DNA from: Candidatus Minimicrobia sp. QA0096
Lineage (GTDB): Bacteria > Patescibacteriota > Saccharimonadia > Saccharimonadales > Saccharimonadaceae
Length of the DNA: 32,000 nucleotides
NCBI RefSeq assembly: GCF_963967315.1
Contig: NZ_OZ017288.1
Span: 570,001 to 602,000, forward strand
Reading direction: 5' to 3'
Part shown: positions 1,055-29,526 of the stretch, piece after piece
Layout of the letters: each line of letters begins with the position of its first letter
Numbering within the stretch: position 1 is the stretch's first letter
Program-made: the position numbers and the translations under genes
The notes under the pieces: model-generated
Databases searched by the model: none
Seen by the model: the letters and a program-made list of their open reading frames with translations, nothing else
Told to the model about the DNA's origin: nothing

Positions 1055-1084
1055 TTGACTTTATGGTACTGCTTATGGTATAGT
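1055..1084 (+). promoter_or_regulatory. Putative promoter for the DHH-like/truB operon
   Basis: TTGACT (1055-1060), 18-nt spacer, TATAGT (1079-1084), with TG at 1076-1077 giving an extended -10. Confidence 0.45.
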
Positions 1085-1123
1085 GATGCCAAGCGTAATT
1101 ACAAAACAAACATAGGAAAAATC

Positions 1124-2818
1124 ATGTCAAACGGATCAGCAAAGCAAAAAGTAATCCAGAGCATCAAGGATGTAACTAATATTTTAGTGACGGTGAGTTC
1201 TAGTCCGTCAGTCGACGAATTGTCGGCAGCATTAGGATTGACGATTTTCCTCAATAAGCTAGGGAAGCACGCTACGGCTGTGTTTAGCGGCGACATTCCG
1301 CCAGCAATTACGTTCTTGAATCCTGATAAGACGTTTGAGCAGACCGCAGATTCTTTACGTGATTTTATTATTGCTTTAGATAAAGAGAAGGCTGATCATT
1401 TACGCTATAAAGTTGTTGACGACGCCGTAAAGATTTTCATTACGCCATATCGTACGACAATTACCGATAAAGACTTGGAATTTTCACAGGGTGATTATAA
1501 CGTTGAGCTAGTTCTGGCGCTAAATGTTGAAAATAGTGAAAGTATTGATACGGCATTAACGGCACACGGTAAGATTTTACATGATGCTACAGTTGTGGCT
1601 ATAACAGCGGGCGATGTAAAGAGTGGTCTGGGTTCTGTTGATTGGCACGAATCTAACGCGAGTGGTGTGAGTGAAATGGTTGTTGAGCTTCTTGATGATC
1701 TGAAGACGCCGAAGGTGACTCTGGATGAGCAGATGGCGACGGCTTTGCTTACGGGAATTGTTGCAGTAACTGACCGATTTAGTAATGGAAATACATCATC
1801 AAAGGTTATGACTACAGCCGCAGAACTTATGGCGGCCGGCGCAAATCAGCAATTGGTGGTTTCAAAGATTGCAGAGAGCGAAGTAGAGGACAAGCCGCAG
1901 AAGATTGAAAAGATCGAAGAAAAATCTCCAGAAAAAGAAGAAGCTTCAGAGGATAAAACTGAAGAAGCGGAGAAAGATGAGGAAACTGTACACGCGGACG
2001 GAACTTTGTCGATTAGCCACGAAAAGAAGGGCGATGTTGATGAAGTAGCCGAACAAACAGCAAAGGAAAAGCAAGAAGAGTCTGCTAGGATTGCTGAAGA
2101 GAAATTGGCTAAAATTGAGCCAATAAAGGAGGAGCCACAAGTTGGGGAAGAAAATCCTAGTGAAAAAATAGTTTCAAAGGGCGAACTTTCTTTTGAGGAA
2201 ACTCCGCTGATGGGTGGCACTCTGAACGCAACGACTACACAGGCTGCCGAGGATAAGATTAGGGAATTGGCTAGCGATCAGAATAAAACCATCTTAACGC
2301 ACGGTAAATATGTGGGTGATAATACGCCGTCGTTTGGCAATACTCCGTTAAATGCGGCTATGGGCGCGTCTGATGAACCACCAAAGATTGATCCGTTTGC
2401 TACAACTAACGCCGCTGAGCAAAAATTGTCGACGATACCTGTTGCGCCGCAATCTGAAGAGTCAATTATTTCGGCAATTACTAACGACATGAATCAATTG
2501 AATAATCCAGTAGCGCCAGCTCCGAGTCAGCCGATTGCGCCAATTGAGCCAGCAATAACAAATCCTGAAAATAGCATTCCAAGTTTCGATTTGCCAATGC
2601 CACCAGCGATGCCAGATTTCGGCGCTTTGCCACCAATGCCGCCAGCGCCTACAGGTGTTGATGTAAATGGATTGCCACAGATTGCACCGCTAGGAGTGGC
2701 TCCTGAACCAGCATCCGCTCCGCAAGCTCCAGCACCTGCGCCGATCACCGCGATGCCAACTCAGCCAGCTCAAAACGCAGATTTCAATCCAGCGCAATTT
2801 CACATTCCAGGACAATAG
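1124..2818 (+). CDS. DHH/NrnA-like protein with degenerate catalytic motifs and a long acidic then Pro-rich disordered C-terminal tail
   Basis: NrnA-like layout: ILVTVSSSPSVDELSAALGL in place of H-x-x-PDGD-x-x-GS, VVAITAGDVKSG in place of the DHH motif, and ALLTGIVAVTDRFSN matching GIVTDTGxF. Position upstream of truB is typical. Start chosen at ATG 1124 rather than the ORF-track start at 1055, which falls in the promoter. Confidence 0.6.
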   Translation: MSNGSAKQKVIQSIKDVTNILVTVSSSPSVDELSAALGLTIFLNKLGKHATAVFSGDIPPAITFLNPDKTFEQTADSLRDFIIALDKEKADHLRYKVVDDAVKIFITPYRTTITDKDLEFSQGDYNVELVLALNVENSESIDTALTAHGKILHDATVVAITAGDVKSGLGSVDWHESNASGVSEMVVELLDDLKTPKVTLDEQMATALLTGIVAVTDRFSNGNTSSKVMTTAAELMAAGANQQLVVSKIAESEVEDKPQKIEKIEEKSPEKEEASEDKTEEAEKDEETVHADGTLSISHEKKGDVDEVAEQTAKEKQEESARIAEEKLAKIEPIKEEPQVGEENPSEKIVSKGELSFEETPLMGGTLNATTTQAAEDKIRELASDQNKTILTHGKYVGDNTPSFGNTPLNAAMGASDEPPKIDPFATTNAAEQKLSTIPVAPQSEESIISAITNDMNQLNNPVAPAPSQPIAPIEPAITNPENSIPSFDLPMPPAMPDFGALPPMPPAPTGVDVNGLPQIAPLGVAPEPASAPQAPAPAPITAMPTQPAQNADFNPAQFHIPGQ

Positions 2819-3841: not shown

Positions 3842-4450
3842 CTATTTTTTCAATTTGGCGATAATCACATCTCGTCCGTCGTTTGCACCGCCCAAAGTGC
3901 AGGAATAAAGAGTTAATTGCGGCTGATCTGTGCGCTGTTCGATTTCCACGGCATCTGGTTTAACGCTTTGTTTTTCGCTGATGACGTAATTGTAACGCAC
4001 GCCGTTATAGTCAATGATAATTTCATCGCCGACAGTCAATTTATCGATATTATAAAAAGGCGATTTTCTGAGTGTTTGTTGAGGAGTTAGGCCCATAATA
4101 AAACGGTGTGCAGATAAGACGAAATTGCCGCCATCTTTTGGGTTGCCGTTTTCTGGTTTTCGCCACCATGCGCCGCGCTCCATTGTTTCGGCGCCACCAG
4201 TGGCATAGGGAAGATTTATATCGATTTTCGGAATATAAAGTCGATTTTCGGTAATTTTATTCTCGGTTTTAGTGATGAGCTGAGTGGTGCGGTTGTCTTT
4301 TGGATTTATGTTTTGCGACAAAATAAGGGGCGTGCTGATGAGAACAAGCAAATAAACTCCGCCAAGAATCATTAAGATTGCGATTATAGTTAAGATATAG
4401 CTTTTCCAGTTTTTTTGGCGATTTTTTACTGAATCTAGCTGAAGTGACAT
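3842..4450 (-). CDS. Sortase family transpeptidase (membrane anchored)
   Basis: N-terminal TM helix, His motif FVLSAHRF, catalytic Cys motif QLTLYSCTLGG, and a downstream Arg (GRDVIIAK). Confidence 0.8.
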   Translation of the reverse strand: MSLQLDSVKNRQKNWKSYILTIIAILMILGGVYLLVLISTPLILSQNINPKDNRTTQLITKTENKITENRLYIPKIDINLPYATGGAETMERGAWWRKPENGNPKDGGNFVLSAHRFIMGLTPQQTLRKSPFYNIDKLTVGDEIIIDYNGVRYNYVISEKQSVKPDAVEIEQRTDQPQLTLYSCTLGGANDGRDVIIAKLKK

Positions 4451-6788: not shown

Positions 6789-7721
6789 ATGGACAATAGT
6801 AATAACAACAAACCTCAAGTGCCGCCTCAGCCGCAATTCCAGCAGGCTCCACAACAGCCACAATTCCAACAGGTTCAGCAGCCTCAGCCACAACAACAAT
6901 TCCCACAACAGCCAGTCGTGGGAACCCCATACCAAATGCCACCAAAAAAGAAAATGAGCAAAGGTGTCATGTGGGGAATCATCGGCGGAATAATTGGGCT
7001 AGTCGTAATTATCGTTGGTGTAGTCCTAGCCGTCTTGTTGCTAGGTGGTCCAAGCAAGGCAGATTATAAAGCTGCTGGAGAAAAGTTAAACGAGACAATT
7101 GAGATATACAATAAGGCGGCTTCGTCGCTTTCGTATATCTCCACTTCAGAAACTGAGACTTCATTGAAATCCAATCGTGATAAGCTCGCTAAAACAAAGA
7201 GCGAAATTAACGACAGATTGACCGAGATAGGTAAAATGAAGGCCGTCACTGGTGACAAAGAGGTTCGCGAAAAGTATGAGGCTCTGAAGAGCAAACTAGA
7301 AAAGTTCAATACAGCCGTAGATGCTTTTGGAGAAGTATACGAGAAGATTATGCCAGTGATAATTGAATTTTCTGACGGCAGAAATAGCTCTAACTTTTCT
7401 AGCGTAGAAAGCACAATTAAGAAGACTCGACAGAATCTTAAGAATGTTGACGCTAAGAATGAAACTAATAAAAAGTTTATTAGAGATTTTACTGCCAAGC
7501 TAGAAAAAATCGAAGAAATGTTGCCGAAGGTTGCGGAGATGAAGGCTGACTATAAAAAGTATAATTCCAACTATATGAGTGAATTTTATGACAGTCTTAC
7601 CGCGATTCAGAAGCCTATTAATGAATGGACATCGGGAATACAGAAGCTGGCAGAAGAGGGTGAAATTCGCGATGAATTAAACGACCTAGGAACTATATTG
7701 GCAGACAAGGTAAATAAATAG
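6789..7721 (+). CDS. Single-pass membrane protein of unknown function: Gln/Pro-rich N-terminus, one TM helix, helical extracytoplasmic domain
   Basis: AGGAGG Shine-Dalgarno. N-terminus PQPQFQQAPQQPQFQQVQQPQPQQQFPQQP. TM segment VMWGIIGGIIGLVVIIVGVVLAVLLLGG. The remainder is K/E-rich and looks helical. No family recognised. Confidence 0.6.
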   Translation: MDNSNNNKPQVPPQPQFQQAPQQPQFQQVQQPQPQQQFPQQPVVGTPYQMPPKKKMSKGVMWGIIGGIIGLVVIIVGVVLAVLLLGGPSKADYKAAGEKLNETIEIYNKAASSLSYISTSETETSLKSNRDKLAKTKSEINDRLTEIGKMKAVTGDKEVREKYEALKSKLEKFNTAVDAFGEVYEKIMPVIIEFSDGRNSSNFSSVESTIKKTRQNLKNVDAKNETNKKFIRDFTAKLEKIEEMLPKVAEMKADYKKYNSNYMSEFYDSLTAIQKPINEWTSGIQKLAEEGEIRDELNDLGTILADKVNK

Positions 7722-8376: not shown

Positions 8377-8405
8377 TTGCAAAAGTTTTCCAGACGTAGT
8401 ATAGT
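8377..8405 (+). promoter_or_regulatory. Putative promoter for the Rrf2-YhgE/Pip operon
   Basis: TTGCAA (8377-8382), 17-nt spacer, TATAGT (8400-8405). Confidence 0.45.
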
Positions 8406-8448
8406 GGATAGTCGATATCTATTATATCTAAGTCGAGAAAGGATTTGT

Positions 8449-8883
8449 ATGAGATTATCGGGAGCTGTTGAACAGGCGTGCTGCATTATGGCAATTCTGG
8501 CGGATCCGAAAAGGACGACGCCGGTAACTAATGATGCGCTGGCGGAAAAGATGCTGGTTTCGCCGACGTACTTGAAGAAAATTAGTCGGAAATTGGTAAT
8601 AGCAAAGCTAATCACTTCAACGCAAGGAACTGGCGGCGGATTTATTTTAGCAAGAAAAATGAACGAAGTTACGTTGCATGATGTTGTCCTTGCAATTGAG
8701 GGAGAATCGCCATTTTTCCAACCTCAGGGAATTGTTGAGAGAGTTTTTCAATCGCGTCCTCGTCAGGTGGAAATTGGCATGAATATGATAGAAAAGGTTT
8801 TTTCTGAAGCGCAGGAAAAGTGGAGTGAATATTTGAAAACTGTGACACTGGAAGATGTAGCAAAGGAGGTTACGCATGATTAA
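8449..8883 (+). CDS. Rrf2 family transcriptional regulator (no C-terminal Cys cluster ligands)
   Basis: wHTH pattern VSPTYLKKISRKLVIAKLITSTQGTGGGFILARK. Start chosen at ATG 8449 (MRLSGAVEQA), the usual Rrf2 N-terminus. Confidence 0.8.
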   Translation: MRLSGAVEQACCIMAILADPKRTTPVTNDALAEKMLVSPTYLKKISRKLVIAKLITSTQGTGGGFILARKMNEVTLHDVVLAIEGESPFFQPQGIVERVFQSRPRQVEIGMNMIEKVFSEAQEKWSEYLKTVTLEDVAKEVTHD

Positions 8884-10960
8884 AAATAAGATGTTACGAG
8901 CCGAGTGGAAGCATTTGTTTAATAATAAAATATTGCTGATATCCATGGCTGTGATTTCGTTTATCCCGATTTTATACAGTGGATTTTTCCTAGGCTCAAT
9001 TTGGGATCCATACGGACAAACAAAAAACTTGCCGGTGGCGTTTGTGAATGAAGATAAGGGCACCAGCTTAAATGGCAAATCGCTGAATGTAGGCGAATCT
9101 GTCGAGAAAAAACTGAAAGATAATCACGATTTGGGCTGGGAGTTTGTTAGCAAACAACAAGCAGACGAAGGTGTGAATAACGGGCATTTTTATGCAGTGG
9201 TAACTATTCCGTCCGATTTTTCGCAGAAAGTGGCGTCAATTACCAAATCTGAACCTCAGCAAGCGGTTATTAATTTTACAACCACGCCAGCGAAAAACTA
9301 CATAGGTTCGCTAGTCAGTAATCAAGCTGCCGCCAAGGTCAAATCTTCGGTGTCTGAGCAAATCACTCAGGCGTACGCTAAGGGAATTTTGGAGAATTTG
9401 GACAAGCTTGGAATGGGGCTGGACACGGCGGCTAACGGCGCGTCAACTTTGCACGACGGATTAGGGCGATTGCAATCTGGCACACAAACATACGTTGGTG
9501 GCGTTAAACAGTTGGCAGTAAACCAGCAATCCTTGGCTGGCGGATTGGCGCAACTTAGCGACGGTTCTCATAAATTACAGGCGGGATTGGGGCAATTGTC
9601 GAACAATTTGCCGACCGAATCTCAATTGTCGCAATTATCTGACGGTATGAAGCAATTGCAATCGGGCATAAATCAGTTAAACGCCAGCGTGAGGAATCCA
9701 TCGCCAGCGCTCGTGGCTCAACAAAACAAGGTAGAAACGGACGCGCAAACTTTGGTGCAAACAATGAAAGATTCGGAGTCCGACTTGTTGACGGCGGGCG
9801 ATACTTTGCGGATTTTGGGCGCGCAAGCAGCCGCTTCTGGTGGCGATTCTACGACGATAAGTTTGCCACAAATTAGCAGTATTTCTCAGGCACTTAAAAA
9901 AACTCAGCCAATTATCGTGCAGATGGGGATGCTACATGAAGATCTTCAAACTCTAAAACAGCAACTATCAGCACAACAAACGCAACTTCAGGCTGGAGTT
10001 TCTGCATTAAATAACGGCGTGAATCAATTGGCGCCAAACGCAATCACCGCATTTAACGGCTATAACAGCGTGCGATTCGCGAACAATCAATTATTGGCGG
10101 GCTCAGCAAGCTTAACAAACGGCTTAAGCGAAGCAAAATCGGGCAGTCAAAAATTGGCGAATGGTGCGAGTTTGTTAGAAAGCCGCTCGGGTGCGTTGAT
10201 TGATGGAACTTCGCAACTAGCAAGCGGCGCAGATACGCTAGCGAATAAATTGGCGGACGCTTCTAATCGCATAAAAATTCAACCAACTGGTGCTACGACT
10301 CAACAGCAAATTGCAAATCCAGTGAAGTCGGAAATGACCGAAAAGGGCAATGTTCCGAATTATGGCTACGCTTTGTCGCCGTATGTTTTGTCGCTAAGTT
10401 TGTTCGTTGGGGCACTCGTTCTGAACGTTATTTATCCGATCCGCAAAACTTTTTCTGAACAGGAAAGTGCGATTCGTTGGTGGTTATCTAAAGCTTCGGT
10501 GGCTGGCGTGGCGGCGTTTATGCAAGCAACGATTTTGATGCTGGTGATGGTGTTTTTCTTAGGGCTAACTCCAGAGCATCCAGCGCATTTCATCGGGGCA
10601 ATTTATCTGACGTCGTTTGCGTATATGTCGATTGTGTCGCTTTTGGTAATTGTTTTGGACAATCCAGGGCGATTCCTAGCGATGGTTCTTTTGGTGCTTC
10701 AATTGGGCTCCAGCGAGGGAACGTTCCCAATCCAAACCGCCAACGGATTCTTCCAAGCAATTAATCCGCTAGTGCCGATGACTTACTCGATTCGCGCATT
10801 GCGCCAGGCTATTTCGGGTGGGCTAGATAACGCATTTTACGGCGGCAGTATGTGGGTTTTGGTTGGATTTTTGTTGGTGGCTAATTTATTGACAATCGGC
10901 TTCTTCACTTATCGTGGTAAGCGTAAATTCGCACACACGTCGGTGGATGGCGATGATTAA
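8876..10960 (+). CDS. YhgE/Pip domain membrane protein (phage-infection-protein family)
   Basis: N-terminal TM helix followed by FFLGSIWDPYGQTKNLPVAFVNEDKG. The long central region has xxxLxxG-type heptads (GLGRLQSG, GLAQLSDG, GLGQLSNN, GMKQLQSG). The C-terminal block has multiple TM helices in an ABC-2-like arrangement. AAGGAGG Shine-Dalgarno. The gene overlaps the Rrf2 gene by 8 nt. Confidence 0.8.
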   Translation: MIKNKMLRAEWKHLFNNKILLISMAVISFIPILYSGFFLGSIWDPYGQTKNLPVAFVNEDKGTSLNGKSLNVGESVEKKLKDNHDLGWEFVSKQQADEGVNNGHFYAVVTIPSDFSQKVASITKSEPQQAVINFTTTPAKNYIGSLVSNQAAAKVKSSVSEQITQAYAKGILENLDKLGMGLDTAANGASTLHDGLGRLQSGTQTYVGGVKQLAVNQQSLAGGLAQLSDGSHKLQAGLGQLSNNLPTESQLSQLSDGMKQLQSGINQLNASVRNPSPALVAQQNKVETDAQTLVQTMKDSESDLLTAGDTLRILGAQAAASGGDSTTISLPQISSISQALKKTQPIIVQMGMLHEDLQTLKQQLSAQQTQLQAGVSALNNGVNQLAPNAITAFNGYNSVRFANNQLLAGSASLTNGLSEAKSGSQKLANGASLLESRSGALIDGTSQLASGADTLANKLADASNRIKIQPTGATTQQQIANPVKSEMTEKGNVPNYGYALSPYVLSLSLFVGALVLNVIYPIRKTFSEQESAIRWWLSKASVAGVAAFMQATILMLVMVFFLGLTPEHPAHFIGAIYLTSFAYMSIVSLLVIVLDNPGRFLAMVLLVLQLGSSEGTFPIQTANGFFQAINPLVPMTYSIRALRQAISGGLDNAFYGGSMWVLVGFLLVANLLTIGFFTYRGKRKFAHTSVDGDD

Positions 10961-10987
10961 TTGACCTCTGTTATAAAACATTGTTCT

Positions 10988-11016
10988 TTGACAAAAAATG
11001 AGCGGTTTGCTAATAT
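10988..11016 (+). promoter_or_regulatory. Putative promoter for rnj
   Basis: TTGACA (10988-10993), 17-nt spacer, TAATAT (11011-11016). This implies a leader of about 80 nt. Confidence 0.45.
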
Positions 11017-11102
11017 AAGAGTACTAACTAGAGGAATTTACATCAGTTCACCTCTATACCTGGTTTTTGAATTATATTGTAATAAAAAAGGAGTATAACA
11101 AT

Positions 11103-13262
11103 ATGGGTCAGCGGCGACTAGCAACACCGCAAAAAGATGACGCCAATAAGCGTCCGCAGTCAAAGAAAAGCAACAATGCAGTTTTGAATAGCACAACTAC
11201 TCGTAAGGGTGAGGTTTTCCGAGCTCAGCGACGAACGAGCGAGAACGTTAATCTCAGGGCTTCACAGCACTTGATTGATATTCCTGTAAATAAGTCGGTT
11301 TACAACGGATATGGTGGTGAGCAATTTAGCGCCAAAATGCAGCCAAAACCTGTTCGCGGCGGTCAGCCGAAACTGCGCATTATTCCGATTGGTGGCGTGG
11401 GCGAAATGGGAATTGGTAAGAATATGAATGCCATTGAATATGATGATGAAATTATCATCGTAGATATGGGCTTTTTGTTCCCGGGCAGTGATTATCCAGG
11501 CATCAATTACATCACGCCAGATATTACTTGGCTGGAAGAGAATAAGCATAAAATTAAGGCACACGTATTTACGCACGGACACCTTGACCACATTGGTTCG
11601 TTCCGTCACTTCATTCATCGTATTCCAGCGCCAGTTTATGGCTCTAAGTTTACGATTGGCATGCTTGATCGAACGATGGACGATTCAGAAGTGGATTTTA
11701 AGCCAGATTATCGAGTGATGGATCCGCTGAGTCACGAAATTGTTCAAGTTTCTAAGCATTTTTCAATCGAGTTGGTGCGAGTTAACCACTCAATTCCTGA
11801 TTCTACGGCGGTGATTATTCGAACTCCAATGGGTGTGATTGTCGATTCTGGTGACTGGCGATTTGAGGAAAGTCCAGTTGACGGTCAAAAGTTTGACCTT
11901 GAGCGACTTACGGATGTGGCTTCAAAAGAAGGCATTTTGATGCTCATGAACGAGTCGACCAACTGTGAGTCGGCTGGCACACACACGCACACAGAGTTTG
12001 ATATTCAGTATTCCATCGGTCAGGTGATGGACAAGTTTAGTAATAGTCGAGTTATTTTAAGCTGTTTCTCATCGCAGGTGCATCGCTTGCAATTAATTTT
12101 AGAAGAGGCGCATAAGCACGGACGCAAGGTGGCATTTGCTGGATTCTCGATGATTCAAAACCTGGAAGTGGCGTTGCGTTCGGGGACGATTAAGATTCCT
12201 AAAGACACCATCATGAAGATGGAAGATATTGTTAAATTGCCAGATAATCAAATTGCCGTAGTTTGTACTGGATCGCAAGGTGAGTTTAATGCTGTCTTAA
12301 ATCGCATGGCGACGGGTGCTCATAAATATATGAAGATTAAGGGCTCGGACGTTGTAGTGTTTAGCTCAAATCCAATTCCTGGCAATGAAAAAAGCGTGGT
12401 GCGAACGGTTGACGGTCTGATGCGTGAAGGTTCTGATGTTATTCAGAATGGTAAAACCCACTTAACAGGTGTCGGTCCGCTGCACTTGTCAGGTCACGGC
12501 TATTATGACGATCATGTCAAATTGATCAACGCGCTTAACCCAACTTACTATATGCCAATTCACGGTGAATTCCATATGTTGGTGCATAATGCCAGATTGG
12601 CGGAAAAGGAATGTGGAATTCCTCGCAAGAATATTTTTGTGTGCGATGCTGGAGATATTATTGAGATTGATATTGAAAGGCAAGCAAAGAAGGCTGGGCG
12701 AATTCATGTTGGCGGTGTGATGTATGATGATACTGGCGCGATTGTTTCTGAGGTTGTGCTGAAAGATCGCATTCACATGTCGCAAGAGGGAATGTTTGTT
12801 GTGGTGCTGACCGTACAGCGCGGCACAGGACGATTATTAACTAGCCCAGACATTATTTCTCGCGGATTTATTTACTTGCGCGACTCTGAAGAGTTGATGA
12901 ATATGATTCGCCAATACTTGAAGCAAAAAGCGGCACGTAGTTTTTCTGGCAAATATGATTTGGATGTGATTAAAAAAGAGATTAAAGATGAGATTACGCA
13001 TATATTGTACGATCAGACTCGCCGAACACCGATTGTTATTCCGGTGATTAACGAAGTTGGCGGATTGAAGTCTGTAAAGTCGGAAGCTGCGTCAGCTCAT
13101 TCTGTTTCAAAATCGCCAGCGCGCGGTAAGAGACCCGCCTCGGGCGAGTCAAAAATGACCCTTCCGACTACGCCGCGTCGTCGTTTTCCGCAGCGCCAAG
13201 TACCAGATACGGAAGCCAATGACACAAAAGCCAGGGAGCGGCAGAATACTCGCCCGTACTAG
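11103..13262 (+). CDS. rnj: Ribonuclease J with basic N- and C-terminal extensions
   Basis: Metallo-beta-lactamase motif HVFTHGHLDHIGSF, with beta-CASP and C-terminal domains. AAGGAG lies upstream of ATG 11103. Confidence 0.9.
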   Translation: MGQRRLATPQKDDANKRPQSKKSNNAVLNSTTTRKGEVFRAQRRTSENVNLRASQHLIDIPVNKSVYNGYGGEQFSAKMQPKPVRGGQPKLRIIPIGGVGEMGIGKNMNAIEYDDEIIIVDMGFLFPGSDYPGINYITPDITWLEENKHKIKAHVFTHGHLDHIGSFRHFIHRIPAPVYGSKFTIGMLDRTMDDSEVDFKPDYRVMDPLSHEIVQVSKHFSIELVRVNHSIPDSTAVIIRTPMGVIVDSGDWRFEESPVDGQKFDLERLTDVASKEGILMLMNESTNCESAGTHTHTEFDIQYSIGQVMDKFSNSRVILSCFSSQVHRLQLILEEAHKHGRKVAFAGFSMIQNLEVALRSGTIKIPKDTIMKMEDIVKLPDNQIAVVCTGSQGEFNAVLNRMATGAHKYMKIKGSDVVVFSSNPIPGNEKSVVRTVDGLMREGSDVIQNGKTHLTGVGPLHLSGHGYYDDHVKLINALNPTYYMPIHGEFHMLVHNARLAEKECGIPRKNIFVCDAGDIIEIDIERQAKKAGRIHVGGVMYDDTGAIVSEVVLKDRIHMSQEGMFVVVLTVQRGTGRLLTSPDIISRGFIYLRDSEELMNMIRQYLKQKAARSFSGKYDLDVIKKEIKDEITHILYDQTRRTPIVIPVINEVGGLKSVKSEAASAHSVSKSPARGKRPASGESKMTLPTTPRRRFPQRQVPDTEANDTKARERQNTRPY

Positions 13263-19169: not shown

Positions 19170-19213
19170 ATATTTATTATATCATCTGCGTAATCTTTGA
19201 TATAATTATAAGC

Positions 19214-22183
19214 ATGAGAAGAAAATACTCATTGCCTAAGGTGGGCATGCTGGCAATAGTAGTGGCTTTAGCTATTTCAGTAACGGCTTTTTTTATCTAT
19301 ACGTACGCGGCGCCAAGCTCGCCAAATTGGACGATAACTGGTAAATCCTGGGTGACGAAGAAGTTTGATTCGTCAGACACGAATAAGTACGGCTCTGACT
19401 GGGTGGTGGCGCCTGGGCGACTTAAGAATGTAAAGCCTGGTGATACTGTTGACTGGTGGCATAGTCTTTTTGTTAGCGGAGGAGCCACTGACAATGTCGT
19501 GACTGGAGTTCAGCAAGATGTGTTCGATTTAAGCTCAAATCAGCCGATGGATAATGATGTCAGTCTGAACGACAGGGGGGCTTGGCATAATGAAGATCCT
19601 CGATGGTTTAACGTTATGACGGATTGGAAGGATTATGCCTGGAAGCGGATGAACAATCCAGCGGATTATCACACTACCTCTATGGAGGCGTTGAACGGCA
19701 AATCTCGGCTTGAGGATCTTCATGGCGAGCTTGGAAAAGATAAATTTATGTTTACGCGAGTTATTCGAAAAGAGGATATGGGCAAGCGTATCTGTCAGCG
19801 AATCTATTGGAGTAAGCGGAATTCTTTGCCGGTTTCGGGATGGGGCTATTCGCAGTATGCGTGCGTAGAGGTTCCATATGATTATGACGTAGAGCCTTCG
19901 GTTAGTGTTAACTCGGATTACATTGACGCAGAAAATGTCACGAAAATTGAGGGAATAAATGCTGGGTTGAATAATAAGGGCACGTCAAAAACTCAAAATT
20001 CTTCGTATGCACTTGCTCGGTTTGTTGTCAGAGGGGCTGAAGTATCGGGGCTTACGGGCAAGGATAATGTAGTTTCGTTGCCTGGGGGTACTGCTGACAA
20101 TGATTGGCCGTGTGCAGTCGTGCGACTGATTAAAGGACAATATAAAGATAGCTTGAATATTGATAGTGGCGCGTGTGGAAAAATTGTTCAAAACACTGGC
20201 AGTCAATTAAACACCGGTCAGACTCCAGTGGCTACAAATCAGATAGATAATCTGGATAGAGTTAAGCTAAGTGCTAACGACAGCCTATGTTATGTGGTTA
20301 TGGTCAGTAATTACAACGGTTCGGCGCCTTCGACGGATTTTAAATACGCGGTTAAGTGTATTAGGTCGTCAAAAAGACCAAAGGTTCAGGTTTGGGGCGG
20401 TGATATTAAGACAGATAAAGAGGTTATTACTAGTAAGACATCAAACAACGTGAACGTTCCTGATGAGAATCTTAGCCGTATTGAGTTAGATAAGACTTCT
20501 ATACGGTCAAAAGGGTTATGGGGTACAGGATTAGATAGAAATGGTAATAAAATTGGAGGCAATATTAATTTTAGTCCTGGTGAATACGGCTTTAAGGGCG
20601 GTGACAGTGTTGATCCGCACTGGTCTATAGTATGTGCTGAGGATCAGTATGGCGGCAATGGAAATCAGAGAGCATATAAGAAGTCTACTGGACAGCCAGA
20701 TTATCTTCCGAGCTGCCATGGTGACGCGACCAATCTAAAAGACGACTATCAAGCCAGAACGGTCGTAACGACACAGTGGCGCAATCCTAGCGGAGGTGAT
20801 GTATTGCAAGATGGTTATATTACATGTAAACCCGATCCTATGTATTACAGTATAGTCGGGGACGCATCGCTTGTCTATAATCCTGATTATTGCAAGAGGG
20901 GTGTTTGGAGGACATCTGACTCTGCGAAGTGGATTAGTATAAATAGTTTTGGTCGGCATACGCATTCTAATAGTAAACCGGATCCAGCGAATCTGAACTG
21001 TCGGGATGATACTCGCCCTATAGCAGAAGTTATCTCGTGCTCGAATACGTATGTCTTTAGGTTAAAAGGTGTTAATTTAGGAGAGCTAAAAGATGCTAAG
21101 AAGCTGGAGATTGGTTTTAGTGGAGCTGTAGATAACTATGTTCGAGTGAAAATTAATGGTCATGAAATGAAGGTGTTGGGTAATGAAAACGGCGCAAGAC
21201 CTGAGGGAACCCAGTATTCTGGTTGGGGTTTTCCGGGTTATGTTGTAAATTCCCGGTTTACTGCTGAGACGCAGCCGGGCACTGTTTTATACGAGAATAA
21301 CAACTTCATCGATATTTATGTAAAATCTAACCCATCGCATATGGGGCTACTGATCGAGGATATATCATTGGCCTATAAGATGGCTTATACAAATCAGAAT
21401 GTGTACGGTTCTTGGGGTGAATATGGAATTATTGCTAATGGTAAGGCGGATTCGGCTTCGGGTGCTGGATTATCATCGTCGTTTAATGGTCGCTCGGGAG
21501 TAACTCCGCGTGACTATAATAAGCTAACTTTCGCCAATATTCCAAAGTTTGGTAATTTCAGCAGCACCAGTTCGGTTCCAGATAATTTTACTTTACCGTC
21601 GGTTGGTGGCGTCAAGGGCAGTGTTTCTGGTAACGTGGATGTCAACAGCTTGGCCACGGGTGAATATAACGCTGGAAACGTAACCTTAACGGGGTCAAAA
21701 TTAAGCGTAGGCAAGAGTATAGTCATAAAGTCCTCGGGTGTAGTTACGATTTCGGGCGATTTGCTATACACAGACACGAATGATGTACGTCAATTGCCAC
21801 AACTAATTATCTACGCGAAGAATATTATTATAGAGCCTTCGGTTGGAGAAGTGAATGCTTGGTTGATTACTCAGAAAGACGGATATGTTAGTACCTGTGG
21901 CGTGGTAATTAGCGCTGGAGCTTGGCTGAATGGAGTTTCTGAATCTTCTTGCGGTAAACAGCTGAAGGTTAACGGGCCAATTAAAACTGGACACTTGTTC
22001 TTGCGACGAACGTACGGCGGAAAACATGCTTCATCTGCAAAGAATGATCCGAACATGCATCCTGGAACTCCAGCAGAAATCATTAATTTGAGGGCTGATA
22101 CTTATATTTGGGCTTATAATAATTATCGAAACACTGGCGCGATTAGCACGATGAATGTTCGTGAATTGCCGCCAAGATATTAA
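19214..22183 (+). CDS. Large exported protein of unknown function (989 aa, 14 Cys, Trp-rich)
   Basis: N-terminal signal or anchor sequence (KVGMLAIVVALAISVTAFFIYTYA). The long ORF has no competing frames. TGaTATAAT lies 7 nt upstream of the ATG. I recognise no family signature. Confidence 0.7.
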   Translation: MRRKYSLPKVGMLAIVVALAISVTAFFIYTYAAPSSPNWTITGKSWVTKKFDSSDTNKYGSDWVVAPGRLKNVKPGDTVDWWHSLFVSGGATDNVVTGVQQDVFDLSSNQPMDNDVSLNDRGAWHNEDPRWFNVMTDWKDYAWKRMNNPADYHTTSMEALNGKSRLEDLHGELGKDKFMFTRVIRKEDMGKRICQRIYWSKRNSLPVSGWGYSQYACVEVPYDYDVEPSVSVNSDYIDAENVTKIEGINAGLNNKGTSKTQNSSYALARFVVRGAEVSGLTGKDNVVSLPGGTADNDWPCAVVRLIKGQYKDSLNIDSGACGKIVQNTGSQLNTGQTPVATNQIDNLDRVKLSANDSLCYVVMVSNYNGSAPSTDFKYAVKCIRSSKRPKVQVWGGDIKTDKEVITSKTSNNVNVPDENLSRIELDKTSIRSKGLWGTGLDRNGNKIGGNINFSPGEYGFKGGDSVDPHWSIVCAEDQYGGNGNQRAYKKSTGQPDYLPSCHGDATNLKDDYQARTVVTTQWRNPSGGDVLQDGYITCKPDPMYYSIVGDASLVYNPDYCKRGVWRTSDSAKWISINSFGRHTHSNSKPDPANLNCRDDTRPIAEVISCSNTYVFRLKGVNLGELKDAKKLEIGFSGAVDNYVRVKINGHEMKVLGNENGARPEGTQYSGWGFPGYVVNSRFTAETQPGTVLYENNNFIDIYVKSNPSHMGLLIEDISLAYKMAYTNQNVYGSWGEYGIIANGKADSASGAGLSSSFNGRSGVTPRDYNKLTFANIPKFGNFSSTSSVPDNFTLPSVGGVKGSVSGNVDVNSLATGEYNAGNVTLTGSKLSVGKSIVIKSSGVVTISGDLLYTDTNDVRQLPQLIIYAKNIIIEPSVGEVNAWLITQKDGYVSTCGVVISAGAWLNGVSESSCGKQLKVNGPIKTGHLFLRRTYGGKHASSAKNDPNMHPGTPAEIINLRADTYIWAYNNYRNTGAISTMNVRELPPRY

Positions 22184-22187
22184 AAGT

Positions 22188-22216
22188 TTGCAAATTAAAA
22201 CGCTAATGTATATAAT
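22188..22216 (+). promoter_or_regulatory. Near-consensus promoter for the pil operon
   Basis: TTGCAA (22188-22193), 17-nt spacer, TATAAT (22211-22216). The pilM ATG at 22228 is 11 nt downstream and has no Shine-Dalgarno. Confidence 0.6.
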
Positions 22217-22227
22217 TGTTATTAGTT

Positions 22228-23274
22228 ATGAAATTAGCAAAAGGGTTGGGCGACTTCTTCGGACTAGACATCGATACGAATGCGGTGCGGGTGGTTCAAT
22301 TGTCTCGTACTGGCGCGGGATGGAGTTTGTCTCATTACGGTTATACACCAGTTGATTCTAAGATAACGAGCGGCGATTCTCCAGAGTCTAAGCGACGCTT
22401 GGGTGAGGCTATTATGACCGCCGTTGGTCAAGCCGGAATTAAGACGTCTAATGTGGCTGTTGGTTTGCCGTCAAATAAGACGTTTTCTACCATTATTGAC
22501 GTGCCGAAAGTTCCTGAGCAAGAACTAAAGGCGATGATGAAGTATCAAATTGACCAATATATTCCAATGTCTTTGGATGAGGCAGAAGTTGACTGGGCTT
22601 TATTGGGCGATAGTTTGCATGCTCAGAATCAGTATGAGATTTTGCTGACAAGTACAGCGAAGGCTTATGCGGAAGAGCGTCTGGAATTAGTTGAAAATCT
22701 TGGCTTCAATGTGATTGCTGAAGAGCCGAACGCTATTGCTATGGTTCGCTCTTTATCGGCTACCGATTCTCAGGATGCGCGTTTGATTATCAATATGGGC
22801 GAAAATTCAACGGATTTGGCGGTCGTCTACAACGGAGCGCCGCGACTTATTCGTATGATTCCAACTGGACTTTCATCTTTGGTTCGATCGGCGGTTCAGA
22901 ATCTTAGTGTTCAGGAAGATCAAGCTCGTCAATTTATTTTGAAATTTGGTTTGGCGCCGGATAAATTAGACGGTCAAGTGTTAAGGGCTATTGATTCAAC
23001 TCTCGACAATTTTTCTTCAGAGTTGGTGAAATCTATAAAGTTTTTCCAAACTCGATATCCAAGCGTAGCAGTTTCTGGAATTTTGTTATCAGGGTTTGGT
23101 TCAGCTATTCCGCAACTTGATGGATATGTGATGAATAAAACTGGAGTCCAGTCAATTGCCGCAGATCCGTGGCAGCGTGTTCAAGTTTCTCAGTCAGATC
23201 AACAGCAATTGGCGCCGATTGCTTCAGAATTTGCTATTGCCGTAGGTCTGGCACAAAGGAGTAATATATCATGA
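22228..23274 (+). CDS. pilM: Type IV pilus assembly protein PilM (actin-like ATPase fold)
   Basis: N-terminus FFGLDIDTNAVRVVQL is the typical PilM phosphate-1 region. Size and position ahead of pilN/pilO fit. ATGA stop/start overlap with pilN. Confidence 0.8.
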   Translation: MKLAKGLGDFFGLDIDTNAVRVVQLSRTGAGWSLSHYGYTPVDSKITSGDSPESKRRLGEAIMTAVGQAGIKTSNVAVGLPSNKTFSTIIDVPKVPEQELKAMMKYQIDQYIPMSLDEAEVDWALLGDSLHAQNQYEILLTSTAKAYAEERLELVENLGFNVIAEEPNAIAMVRSLSATDSQDARLIINMGENSTDLAVVYNGAPRLIRMIPTGLSSLVRSAVQNLSVQEDQARQFILKFGLAPDKLDGQVLRAIDSTLDNFSSELVKSIKFFQTRYPSVAVSGILLSGFGSAIPQLDGYVMNKTGVQSIAADPWQRVQVSQSDQQQLAPIASEFAIAVGLAQRSNIS

Positions 23275-27750: not shown

Positions 27751-28965
27751 ATGAAAAAATACAATTATGAAGCCAGAGATAGCGCAAGTAACAAAATCGT
27801 TAAATCAGTTGTTCAGGCTGATAGTGAAAACGCTGCCGCAAAGCTTTTGACGGCGCAGGGCTTTGTGCCGTTAAAAATTGAATTACAAGACGATAAAACA
27901 AATTTCTTTGCGAGGTTTTCTGGTAGAATCACCACTAAGGACAAGGTTGTGTTTACTCGTCAGCTAGCAACTCTTATTGGAGCAGGACTACCTTTGGCAC
28001 AAAGCCTTCGAACGGTTCAGGAGCAGACTACGAATAAGCGTATGCAGGAGATAGTCCAGGAAATTATCTCTGACGTCGAAGGTGGTAAATCCTTGTCTGA
28101 TTCGTTCGCAAAGCATCCAGAGGCTTTTAATAAAGTTTATGTAGCTTTGGTTTCGGCTGGTGAAACGTCAGGTACGATGGATGATTCGCTTAAGAGGTTA
28201 GCTGCTCAGCAGGAAAAAGACGCTGCTATGATGAGTAAGATTAGAGGTGCTATGATGTATCCGTCAATTGTCTTGGTAGTGATTATCTTAGTTATCGGAT
28301 TTATGTTGTTCACGGTTGTTCCGCAAGTTGAGGGTCTGTATCGTGACTTAAATAAGGAGTTGCCATTTGTGACTCTTGCGATGATTAAAGTGGCGAACTT
28401 TTTTAGTAGTCTTTGGTGGCTTGTTATATTGGCAATGATTATCGGCGGTTATTTCCTAGCACAATATTTGAAAACTGAGCAGGGAATTAGGACTAAAGAC
28501 ATCTTTAAGCTCAATGTCCCGCTATTTAAAGGAATGTTCAGGAAGATGTACATGGCTCGATTTGCTAGAACTGGTCAAGTTCTTCTGAGAACTGGCGTGC
28601 CAATGCTTGATATGCTTCGTATTACGGCTGACGCTGTTAATAACGTGATTATTAGTGAAAGCATACTTCGCGCATCGGATAAGGTTAAAGGTGGTAAGGC
28701 GCTCTCGGCTTCTTTATCTAATGAAGATTATTTCCTAGCAATGGTGCCGCAGATGATTAAAATCGGTGAGCAGTCGGGTAAGATTGATGAGATGATGGGC
28801 AAGACCGCTCAAGTTTATGAAGATGAGCTTGATGAGGAAATTCGCGCTTTGTCGACGGCGATAGAACCAGTCCTAATGGTCTTCTTGGCTATAGTTGCCG
28901 GTACGATGGTGTCGGCTATCTTGCTTCCAATCTATAGCTTGGTTGGCAACATCAATATTCGCTAG
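27751..28965 (+). CDS. pilC: Type IV pilus platform protein PilC (T2SS F family)
   Basis: Two T2SSF repeats (FTRQLATLIGAGLPLAQSL and FARTGQVLLRTGVPMLDML) and three TM segments. Confidence 0.9.
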   Translation: MKKYNYEARDSASNKIVKSVVQADSENAAAKLLTAQGFVPLKIELQDDKTNFFARFSGRITTKDKVVFTRQLATLIGAGLPLAQSLRTVQEQTTNKRMQEIVQEIISDVEGGKSLSDSFAKHPEAFNKVYVALVSAGETSGTMDDSLKRLAAQQEKDAAMMSKIRGAMMYPSIVLVVIILVIGFMLFTVVPQVEGLYRDLNKELPFVTLAMIKVANFFSSLWWLVILAMIIGGYFLAQYLKTEQGIRTKDIFKLNVPLFKGMFRKMYMARFARTGQVLLRTGVPMLDMLRITADAVNNVIISESILRASDKVKGGKALSASLSNEDYFLAMVPQMIKIGEQSGKIDEMMGKTAQVYEDELDEEIRALSTAIEPVLMVFLAIVAGTMVSAILLPIYSLVGNINIR

Positions 28966-29046
28966 ACTGACTTATATTTTTAGTGTATTATAAACGTAAG
29001 CATTTTTGCGTAAATATAGGTAAACCATAGAAAGGTGGGAAATCTA

Positions 29047-29526
29047 ATGACAAAAAAAGATAATAAAAAAGGATTTACAATCATCGAGGTCGTTCTAGTC
29101 TTGGCTATTGCTGGACTTATCTTTGCGATGGTGTTTATCGCATTGCCAGCTTTGCAACGTAGCCAGCACGACCAGTCAAGGAAGAATGACGCTTCAACGG
29201 TTGCTGCAGCTATTACCAATTGGAATTCAGCTAATCGTAACGGTGGCACGTTTAATGAAGAATCTCTACGCAAGTATGTCGATAAGCTTGATCAATACGA
29301 CAAGTCTTCAGAGTTAAAGGTTGCTACACCTGGTGCTTCAATGTCAGTCGCTGGCAATGAAATCAAGGTTATGCGAGGCAAGAAGTGTCCTTCTAGCACG
29401 CCAGCTCCATCTGCTGACGATCCAGCAAATATAACTTTGCAAAACGGATCTTCACGCAACGCAGCAGTTGTAGTTCTATTGGAAAATAATGGCTCTCAAA
29501 AGCAATTGTATTGCCAGGACGTATAA
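29047..29526 (+). CDS. Type IV major pilin candidate
   Basis: Class III signal peptide MTKKDNKKG/FTIIEVVLVLAIAGLIFA with Glu at +5. A C-terminal Cys pair (KKCPSS ... LYCQDV) is consistent with a D-region disulfide. AAAGGTGG Shine-Dalgarno. A strong terminator follows. Confidence 0.85.
   Translation: MTKKDNKKGFTIIEVVLVLAIAGLIFAMVFIALPALQRSQHDQSRKNDASTVAAAITNWNSANRNGGTFNEESLRKYVDKLDQYDKSSELKVATPGASMSVAGNEIKVMRGKKCPSSTPAPSADDPANITLQNGSSRNAAVVVLLENNGSQKQLYCQDV

Follow-up and report, generated by a model that had tools for sequence, protein, structure and literature searches.

A large exported protein encoded upstream of the type IV pilus operon in Saccharibacteria: family, architecture and candidate role in host recognition

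A stretch of 32,000 nucleotides from Candidatus Minimicrobia sp. QA0096 (NCBI RefSeq assembly GCF_963967315.1, contig NZ_OZ017288.1, positions 570,001 to 602,000), referred to as the window, was analysed with regard to an open reading frame (ORF) of 989 amino acids directly upstream of a type IV pilus operon. The encoded protein, here named X989, has export features, is rich in cysteine and tryptophan, and belongs to a new family of Saccharibacteria, in which a conserved C-terminal module is joined to unrelated or swapped N-terminal modules. Our tentative reading is that X989 is a Sec-exported, disulfide-bonded modular surface adhesin, by which episymbiotic Nanosynbacter would recognise the host cell. 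How ultrasmall episymbionts of the Saccharibacteria and the Candidate Phyla Radiation recognise particular hosts is an open question. Published work was focused on pilins, and additional adhesins were postulated (PMC12206443; PMC10633639).

Gene family and strain variability

An exhaustive HMMER search covering 1.84 billion cluster representatives yielded 1547 relatives of X989 at E ≤ 1e-3, 1274 at E ≤ 1e-10 and 410 at E ≤ 1e-30. Thus, the protein is not the orphan which an earlier, sequence-only reading of this DNA had assumed. Most relatives have only residues ~726-989, a C-terminal module of ~265 amino acids, in common with X989. The module ends at the very last residue in 122 of 140 representatives, and ~95% terminate in ELPPR[F/Y/L/W]. 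Judged by these sequences, the family can be described by YGSW[AG]EYG...SASGAGLS...LTFAN, a solenoid with two invariant cysteines and, at the very C-terminus, PAEIxNLRxDxYxWA...ELPPR[FY]; X989 contains all of them. Its members are found widely in environmental metagenomes, too (JGI soil and water samples).

With the single sequence of X989, no match was obtained in Pfam (to E ≤ 10), NCBIfam, PHROGs or PDB, and the profile of the C-terminal module found nothing in PDB below E 0.5. Word-indexed homologue searches returned only relatives with at least 90% identity for the whole protein; for the C-terminal domain or its alignment the hits were for the most part short fragments, hardly any of them named. 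The cluster look-up for family names gave no names. An enzyme or housekeeping family, named in the earlier reading as the finding that would speak against it, was detected neither in single-sequence nor in profile searches. A description of the gene or its family was not found in the literature searched for the TM7x locus tag, adhesins and host specificity and in transcriptome and transposon sequencing supplements. A phage origin of X989 was ruled out by the missing PHROG match and the lack of relatives in viral contigs.

For the comparison of strains 69 related genome loci were available, all from Candidatus Saccharibacteria or Nanosynbacter of the human oral TM7 group. The closest one was that of Nanosynbacter sp. 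TM7-087, species HMT-352. No other gene of the locus is nearly as divergent as X989. In L025, L026, L029, L033, L058 and L069 the proteins encoded on both sides share 97-100% identity with those of the window, in contrast to only 70-71% for X989. The divergence differs by region: residues 1-50 are ~92% identical, residues 51-700 38-76% and residues 701-989 80-100%, and the variable part contains a conserved island at residues 151-200 (88-92%). Synonymous divergence (dS) is ~2.1-2.3 in residues 51-700 and 0.4-0.6 in residues 701-989, compared to 0.2-0.35 in ychF, pilM, pilB and pilC. Because of this difference between residues 51-700 and the flanking genes, the middle part of X989 probably represents an old allele class brought into near-identical genomes via recombination. 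Alleles of the closer class are block-wise mosaics.

With omega at about 0.1-0.2, the gene is subject to purifying selection and is therefore regarded as a real one. Values of omega were 0.12-0.19 in the variable part, 0.01-0.06 in its flanks and 0.00-0.04 in the C-terminal motifs. Selection on the variable part is relaxed, yet still purifying. In one of the related loci, which otherwise shares 97-100% identity with the window, a second segment of the pilus locus was swapped by recombination. At L058:18505-19988 (compare 27751-29526 of the window) divergent alleles have taken the place of PilC (64% identical, non-synonymous divergence dN 0.28) and of the major pilin (66%).

The host range differs between strains of HMT-352 independently of their phylogeny (PMC9040727), and strains that differ in host range have different X989 alleles. 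An RCC1-repeat gene, which is a pilus adhesin candidate of the PilX2 type, and VKOR rank with the single-copy core genes that vary most in HMT-352 strains (PMC9040727, Table S6); this table names annotated variable genes only and leaves out 11 unannotated ones.

The same variability could belong to a structural or protective envelope protein. Phages, the human immune system or relaxed constraint would then be its source, not the recognition of host bacteria. The variable region is under relaxed and not positive selection, and antigenic or phage-receptor loci typically maintain old allele classes through recombination as well. Furthermore, oral Saccharibacteria interact with human cells (PMC13194787). 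On the other hand, the family is also common in environmental metagenomes, free of immune pressure, and no sign of self-assembly of the S-layer type was seen. We consider a structural or protective role the least probable of the readings weighed here.

Export, cysteines and domain architecture

The N-terminus MRRKYSLPK-VGMLAIVVALAISVTAFFIYTYA-AP is the sole strongly hydrophobic segment of X989 (Kyte-Doolittle maximum over 19 amino acids 2.67 compared to ≤1.14 elsewhere). A signal-like start is present in 117 of 132 full-length family representatives, one of which has a further transmembrane-like segment, and classical signal peptides of the AXA type are carried by family members. The prepilin motif G-[FMLIVAY]-[TS]-[LIV]-x-E was found neither in X989 nor in any of the 132 relatives. 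X989 has no match to Pfam N_methyl (PF07963), whereas the true pilins of the window do match. By these two results X989 was ruled out as a prepilin or minor pilin. Anchoring by an LPXTG sortase signal was ruled out as well, as the protein ends in VRELPPRY without a C-terminal hydrophobic segment. A sortase-domain protein is encoded elsewhere in the window (3842-4450, minus strand; Pfam Sortase, 6e-19).

X989 contains 23 tryptophans and 14 cysteines, the latter at positions 194, 217, 300, 321, 359, 382, 474, 501, 538, 560, 596, 609, 895 and 913. The cysteine content is 1.42%. Most ORFs of the window have 0-0.9%, but PilD and one pilin reach ~2.3%; the cytoplasmic proteins can thus be called cysteine-poor by comparison, as had been noted, only in a loose sense. 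Nanosynbacter alleles retain all 14 cysteines, also in surroundings with a sequence identity of only 38-76%. The pairs 194/217, 359/382 and 895/913 are essentially universal in the family; of the pairs 474/501 and 596/609 either both members are present or both are absent. Seven local disulfides in an extracytoplasmic X989 are likely, because adjacent cysteines are conserved or lost jointly and DsbA-like genes adjoin one paralogue. VKOR was reported in these genomes (PMC9040727).

Structure prediction with AlphaFold2 (AF2) gave a full-length model with a predicted local distance difference test (pLDDT) of 69 and a predicted template modelling score (pTM) of 0.40, and a model of the C-terminal module with values of 74.6 and 0.71, respectively. 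The signal-like start is followed by a variable region, two tandem beta-sandwiches, a family-wide motif, a cysteine-rich part, a jelly-roll-type sandwich and the C-terminal module (Table 1). Several features proposed from the sequence alone were confirmed: the ORF with its 14 cysteines, the signal-like hydrophobic N-terminus, and, in the models, a beta-sandwich followed by a C-terminal beta-solenoid. The proposed export was supported, and disulfide bonds are likely.

The ratio of non-synonymous to synonymous differences (pN/pS) is highest for residues 121-150 within the variable N-terminal region (0.39). In the locus L045 an extra N-terminal module of ~230 amino acids is present. For the tandem sandwiches no Pfam match to CARDB (PF07705) was obtained with X989; the relative P0189 matched weakly (E 5.9e-4, below the curated cut-off), and the fold is generically Ig-like. 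Family members of ~750 amino acids join KPKVQVWGGD to YGSWAEYG within ~20 residues, and therefore residues 405-725 represent a subfamily-specific module. Its profile had no sequence match in PDB, and in relatives only sub-threshold Pfam hints (BetaGal_ABD2 and CE2_N) were obtained.

In the C-terminal module G732, S733, E736 and Y737 are invariant in the family. The segment containing them, residues 726-796, was not modelled confidently (pLDDT <50 in both AF2 models). Within the solenoid the invariant pair C895-C913 encloses a variable loop; residues 901-930 (nucleotides ~21914-22003) form a local hotspot of variability with pN/pS 0.29 compared to ≤0.1 around it. All Foldseek matches of the C-terminal model were beta-solenoids. 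The top match was ComZ (6qvi_B), which was weak (probability 0.99, E 0.09, query TM-score (TMq) 0.31). The whole model matched generic Ig/FN3 arrays only (PDB and BFVD, TM-score about 0.1), and this result was not used for function. Integrin legs, adhesin stalks, Ig/FN3 arrays and beta-solenoid adhesins were the structural neighbours of the models.

In the locus L154 (1230-4694) the homologue is split into ORFs of 727 and 425 amino acids at the boundary of the Gly/Ser-rich segment and the solenoid. The second ORF encodes a transmembrane segment and a von Willebrand factor A (vWA) domain (Pfam VWA, VWA_2), then the solenoid and an ELPPRF end. Domain insertion, gene fission or a frameshift could be the cause. 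Seemingly fragmented or frameshifted homologues in Ca. Minimicrobia vallesae IHU2 and two metagenome-assembled genomes (L062:10001-12968, L059:~8400-11392, L155:3755-8840) could be pseudogenes or assembly errors.

The C-terminal module could alternatively be catalytic. X989 would then be an exported enzyme, e.g. a beta-helix degrading polysaccharides or cell walls, which is targeted to host envelopes by its N-terminal sandwiches. The charged or polar residues E736, R932, E955, R960, D962 and N920 are invariant and purifying selection is extreme, lyases and depolymerases are found among beta-helix folds, and the sub-threshold hints mentioned above point to carbohydrate-related jelly-rolls. Essential glycan-binding or glycan-degrading envelope proteins were reported in Southlakia (PMC10633639). 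However, neither the single sequence nor the profile matched an enzyme family in Pfam, NCBIfam or PDB, and no match to Beta_helix (PF13229) was detected. The solenoid is short (~150 amino acids) and its fold matches are non-enzymatic (ComZ, ice-binding proteins, Ag43 and TPS domains), with enzyme chains listed only at E >3 and probability ≤0.03. An enzymatic function is therefore improbable in our view.

Expression signals and gene neighbourhood

Both promoter-like elements described earlier, a separate -10 box of X989 and the promoter of the pilus genes immediately behind it, were found again (Table 1), and Pfam agreed with the assignment of the downstream genes to a type IV pilus operon. The arrangement TGATATAAT-7 nt-ATG upstream of the X989 gene is kept only within Nanosynbacter-like alleles, there with the same spacing and including the class of ~70% identity. 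The promoter of pilM, with TTGC/TTTACA as -35 element, a spacer of ~17 nt, TGTATAAT and ~11 nt to the ATG, is kept across divergent lineages with variation of nearby bases. No terminator-like site was found in the window between the X989 stop codon (22181-22183) and pilM. The X989 gene and the pil operon nevertheless look like separate transcription units, because the promoter element of pilM is conserved and one lineage has a terminator-like hairpin behind the X989 homologue. This agrees with the separate control assumed before.

For X989 (19198-19214) and for pilM (22208-22228) an extended -10 element TGnTATAAT is located only 7-11 nt from the start codon, which leaves no room for a Shine-Dalgarno sequence; the related loci look alike. 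This distance therefore suggests leaderless or near-leaderless mRNAs of both genes. In distant lineages a gene for a small transmembrane protein stands upstream of the X989 homologue in place of the -10 arrangement. Such genes for proteins of ~150 amino acids were seen between ychF and the homologue (L045:~8840-9285, L070:9521-9985, L154:764-1270). The proteins have an N-terminal transmembrane segment and two conserved cysteines, their pairwise similarity is weak (BLASTP E 1e-5, one pair) and they are absent from the lineage of the window.

The operon has the order pilM-N-O-small-B-T-C-A-D-minor pilins, with Pfam matches to PilM_2, T2SSE (twice), T2SSF, N_methyl pilins and Peptidase_A24. It is the counterpart of type IV pilus locus one of Nanosynbacter lyticus TM7x, for which the published inventory begins at pilM1 without the gene upstream (PMC12206443). 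The homologue is located directly upstream of pilM in 69 of 69 genome loci showing downstream sequence and in 62 of 77 further informative metagenome or assembly loci (all but four from the metagenome scan); in four more of these 77 the pil operon lies 0.6-2.9 kb downstream. The same position was found for all six distant representatives looked up, with identities down to 33-45% and sometimes only the C-terminal module in common.

This linkage speaks for X989 as a physical component of the locus-one pilus. The C-terminal solenoid would dock on the minor-pilin tip complex, like PilY1/PilC or ComZ, and the N-terminal part would be the tip adhesin. Besides the position next to pilM, which is kept even where only the C-terminal module is common, the type-I signal peptide, the conserved C-terminal and variable N-terminal parts and the vWA variant follow the logic of PilY1. 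ComZ is the top fold match of the C-terminal module, the conserved unmodelled segments and the tail could fold only on a partner, and no PilY1 homologue was described for locus one (PMC12206443). Several observations argue in the opposite direction. The whole block rpsF-ssb-rpsR-efp-tlyA-ychF-X-pilM is syntenic, as if frozen, so that ychF is equally linked to pilM and the linkage is weaker functional evidence. In Southlakia epibionticum, the pilus genes of which are essential according to the literature, no gene intervenes between the end of ychF at 103880 and the start of pilM at 103892. Paralogues are located far from pil genes, and pilM has its own conserved promoter right behind the X989 stop codon. 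X989 lacks the prepilin motif and matches to Pfam PilC/PilY1 and N_methyl, the match to ComZ is not significant, since beta-solenoids match each other generically, and the TM7x pilus inventory omits the gene (PMC12206443). Thus, the predicted synteny of orthologues with pilM held down to ~35% identity of the shared domain, but the syntenic block, Southlakia and the unlinked paralogues reduce its value as a functional clue. That X989 is a part of the pilus itself is a serious alternative, if on balance an unlikely one.

A more specific form of this alternative makes the family the missing tip adhesin of the PilY1 type in the monoderm type IVa pilus of Saccharibacteria. The solenoid would dock as a plug, and the N-terminal cassette swapped by recombination would set the strains of Actinobacteria to which the cell can attach. 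If true, this would explain why the host range of Nanosynbacter HMT-352 departs from the genome phylogeny. We rate this proposal as speculative and still less likely than a pilus component in general.

Two of the paralogues were inspected. One of 1247 amino acids (L110:3049-6792) lies downstream of genes for a DcuC-type transporter and carbamate kinase (arginine deiminase pathway) and upstream of two DsbA-like thioredoxin genes. The other one of 927 amino acids (L138:4069-6852) is preceded by an ORF of 187 amino acids, surrounded by two-component systems and adjoined by an M48 peptidase gene.

Concerning other genes of the window, X989 is not its only large ORF without assignment, as had been stated, since a second one of 587 amino acids (1055-2818, plus strand) has no Pfam family. 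A protein of 310 amino acids (6789-7721, plus strand) with a Gln/Pro-rich N-terminus (QPQ repeats) gave only sub-threshold Pfam matches of coiled-coil type (SseC-like, RPW8).

Table 1 Features of the X989 gene and its surroundings; nucleotide positions refer to the window
Feature	Residues	Position	Strand	Remarks
Extended -10 promoter-like element TGaTATAAT		19198-19206	+	7 nt upstream of the X989 ATG
X989 ORF	1-989	19214-22183 (stop codon included)	+	989 amino acids; exported multidomain Cys/Trp-rich protein; homologues under purifying selection
Signal-peptide-like N-terminus	1-33	19214-19312	+	Hydrophobicity and charge pattern; possible cleavage in T-Y-A-A before the last A, uncleaved anchor as alternative
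Variable N-terminal region	36-175	19319-19738	+	Partly beta, partly low confidence; other N-terminal modules in other lineages
Two tandem Ig/CARDB-like beta-sandwiches	177-385	19742-20368	+	AF2 pLDDT 80-90; Cys pairs 194-217, 300-321, 359-382
Family-wide motif KRPKVQVWGGD	387-397	20372-20404	+	Invariant or near-invariant columns; low pLDDT
Subfamily-specific module	405-725	20426-21388	+	Cys-rich part (474-501, 538-560, 596-609), then jelly-roll-type sandwich; AF2 pLDDT 80-90
Jelly-roll-type beta-sandwich	611-723	21044-21382	+	AF2 model
Most conserved segment, Gly/Ser-rich, YGSWGEYGI...SASGAGLSS...LTFAN	726-796	21389-21601	+	pN/pS 0.02-0.04
Beta-solenoid core of the family-defining C-terminal module	797-945	21602-22048	+	pLDDT >90, pTM 0.71
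PAEIxNLRxDxYxWA helix and tail ending in RELPPRY	946-989	22049-22180	+	Conserved; pN/pS 0.00-0.03
Promoter-like element of the pil operon, TTGCAA-17-TATAAT		22188-22216	+	Begins 4 nt past the X989 stop codon, just upstream of pilM
pilM, first gene of the type IV pilus locus-one operon		22228-23274	+	Pfam PilM_2 (9e-38); corresponds to TM7x_00415, pilM1 (PMC12206443)

Host recognition as the favoured reading

According to the reading of X989 as a host-recognition adhesin, the C-terminal module with its Gly/Ser-rich segment, beta-solenoid of ~150 amino acids, helix and ELPPRY end would hold the protein on the producing cell, possibly via a partner conserved across Saccharibacteria. The N-terminal two thirds with the Ig-like sandwiches, the Cys-rich module and the jelly-roll would bind a ligand on the host bacterium. 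Homologous recombination would swap this variable part, with the conserved 5' end and the 3' module as anchors, and the gene would be transcribed from its own promoter beside, yet apart from, the locus-one operon. X989 might then belong to the 'close-proximity adhesins', which were postulated to come into play after an approach mediated by pili. A surface adhesin, host-recognition factor or pilus tip protein had been proposed before. The export features, the fold and the position of the gene are in line with this proposal, but the function is deduced, with the weak match to ComZ as the sole structural hint. What was observed are the features of an export signal, the domain layout, the make-up of the family, the pattern of variability, the order of genes and the promoter-like elements; surface retention, host binding and any role in host range are our inference.

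The following points weigh against an adhesin. X989 has no known motif for anchoring in the cell wall or membrane, neither LPXTG nor a C-terminal transmembrane segment; retention on the cell is an assumption. The full-length model is only moderate and leaves the most conserved segment unmodelled. The highly conserved charged residues of the C-terminal module might just as well belong to an active site, and host binding is not supported by homology to any known binding protein. Finally, positive selection as in an arms race was not found, either pairwise or in windows of 30 codons, for which pN/pS did not exceed the maximum given above for residues 121-150.

The family is large and unnamed, is widespread in human-associated and environmental Saccharibacteria and has the typical traits of a determinant of specificity: export, modularity, a conserved docking end and a variable end replaced through recombination among strains that are otherwise near-identical. 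The X989 gene stands at the head of an essential pilus locus but is missing from the published lists of pilus genes. A method for allelic exchange in these bacteria has been published. Since, in addition, cultured HMT-352 strains of different host range carry different alleles, the host-recognition hypothesis is directly testable.

Comparison with known systems

In general, X989 seems to be of a familiar modular type of adhesin or specificity protein, yet its conserved module is without known homologue. Like PilY1/PilC of Pseudomonas, Neisseria and Myxococcus, X989 is large and exported, has a type-I signal and is encoded in the neighbourhood of type IVa pilus genes. Both families have a conserved C-terminal and a variable modular N-terminal part, a vWA domain (in one variant of the X989 family) and paralogues at other loci. 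In contrast, the C-terminal part of PilY1/PilC is a beta-propeller (PF05567), to which X989 has no match, and that of X989 is a beta-solenoid; there is no relationship in sequence or fold. Furthermore, PilY1/PilC are encoded among minor pilins, and the X989 gene, which has a promoter of its own, is situated upstream of pilM.

The competence-associated ComZ of Thermus thermophilus (PDB 6qvi) is a true pilin; its N-terminus forms a pilin helix, into which a solenoid is inserted. It shares with X989 the beta-solenoid and the encoding together with type IV pilus genes. X989, however, has no pilin N-terminus, its solenoid is C-terminal and not inserted, and the match is weak, as described above.

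Tandem arrays of beta-sandwiches together with a beta-solenoid are known from modular Ig-stalk adhesins of Gram-positive and Gram-negative bacteria (Cpe0147, the RTX ice-binding adhesin, Streptococcus sanguinis pilus proteins and Ag43), which were found among the Foldseek neighbours. Unlike these, X989 has no LPXTG/sortase signal, no autotransporter barrel and no RTX or type I secretion signal or repeats, and the TM-scores were ~0.1-0.3. Receptor-binding proteins and tail fibres of phages likewise have one conserved attachment end and one variable, recombining end, and BFVD matches were obtained with Ig/FN3-rich tail proteins. The polarity of X989 is reversed, however, with the conserved end at the C-terminus, no PHROG was matched, and the gene belongs to a conserved block of housekeeping genes on the chromosome.

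The closest parallel within the same organism group is given by PilX1 and PilX2 of N. lyticus TM7x, candidates for PilY1-like adhesins, which have a beta-jelly-roll or beta-propeller C-terminal domain and no PilD signal (PMC12206443). In contrast to X989, PilX1 (TM7x_00475) comprises 380 amino acids and is encoded at the far end of locus one; X989 with ~990 amino acids is encoded by the unlisted gene upstream of pilM1.

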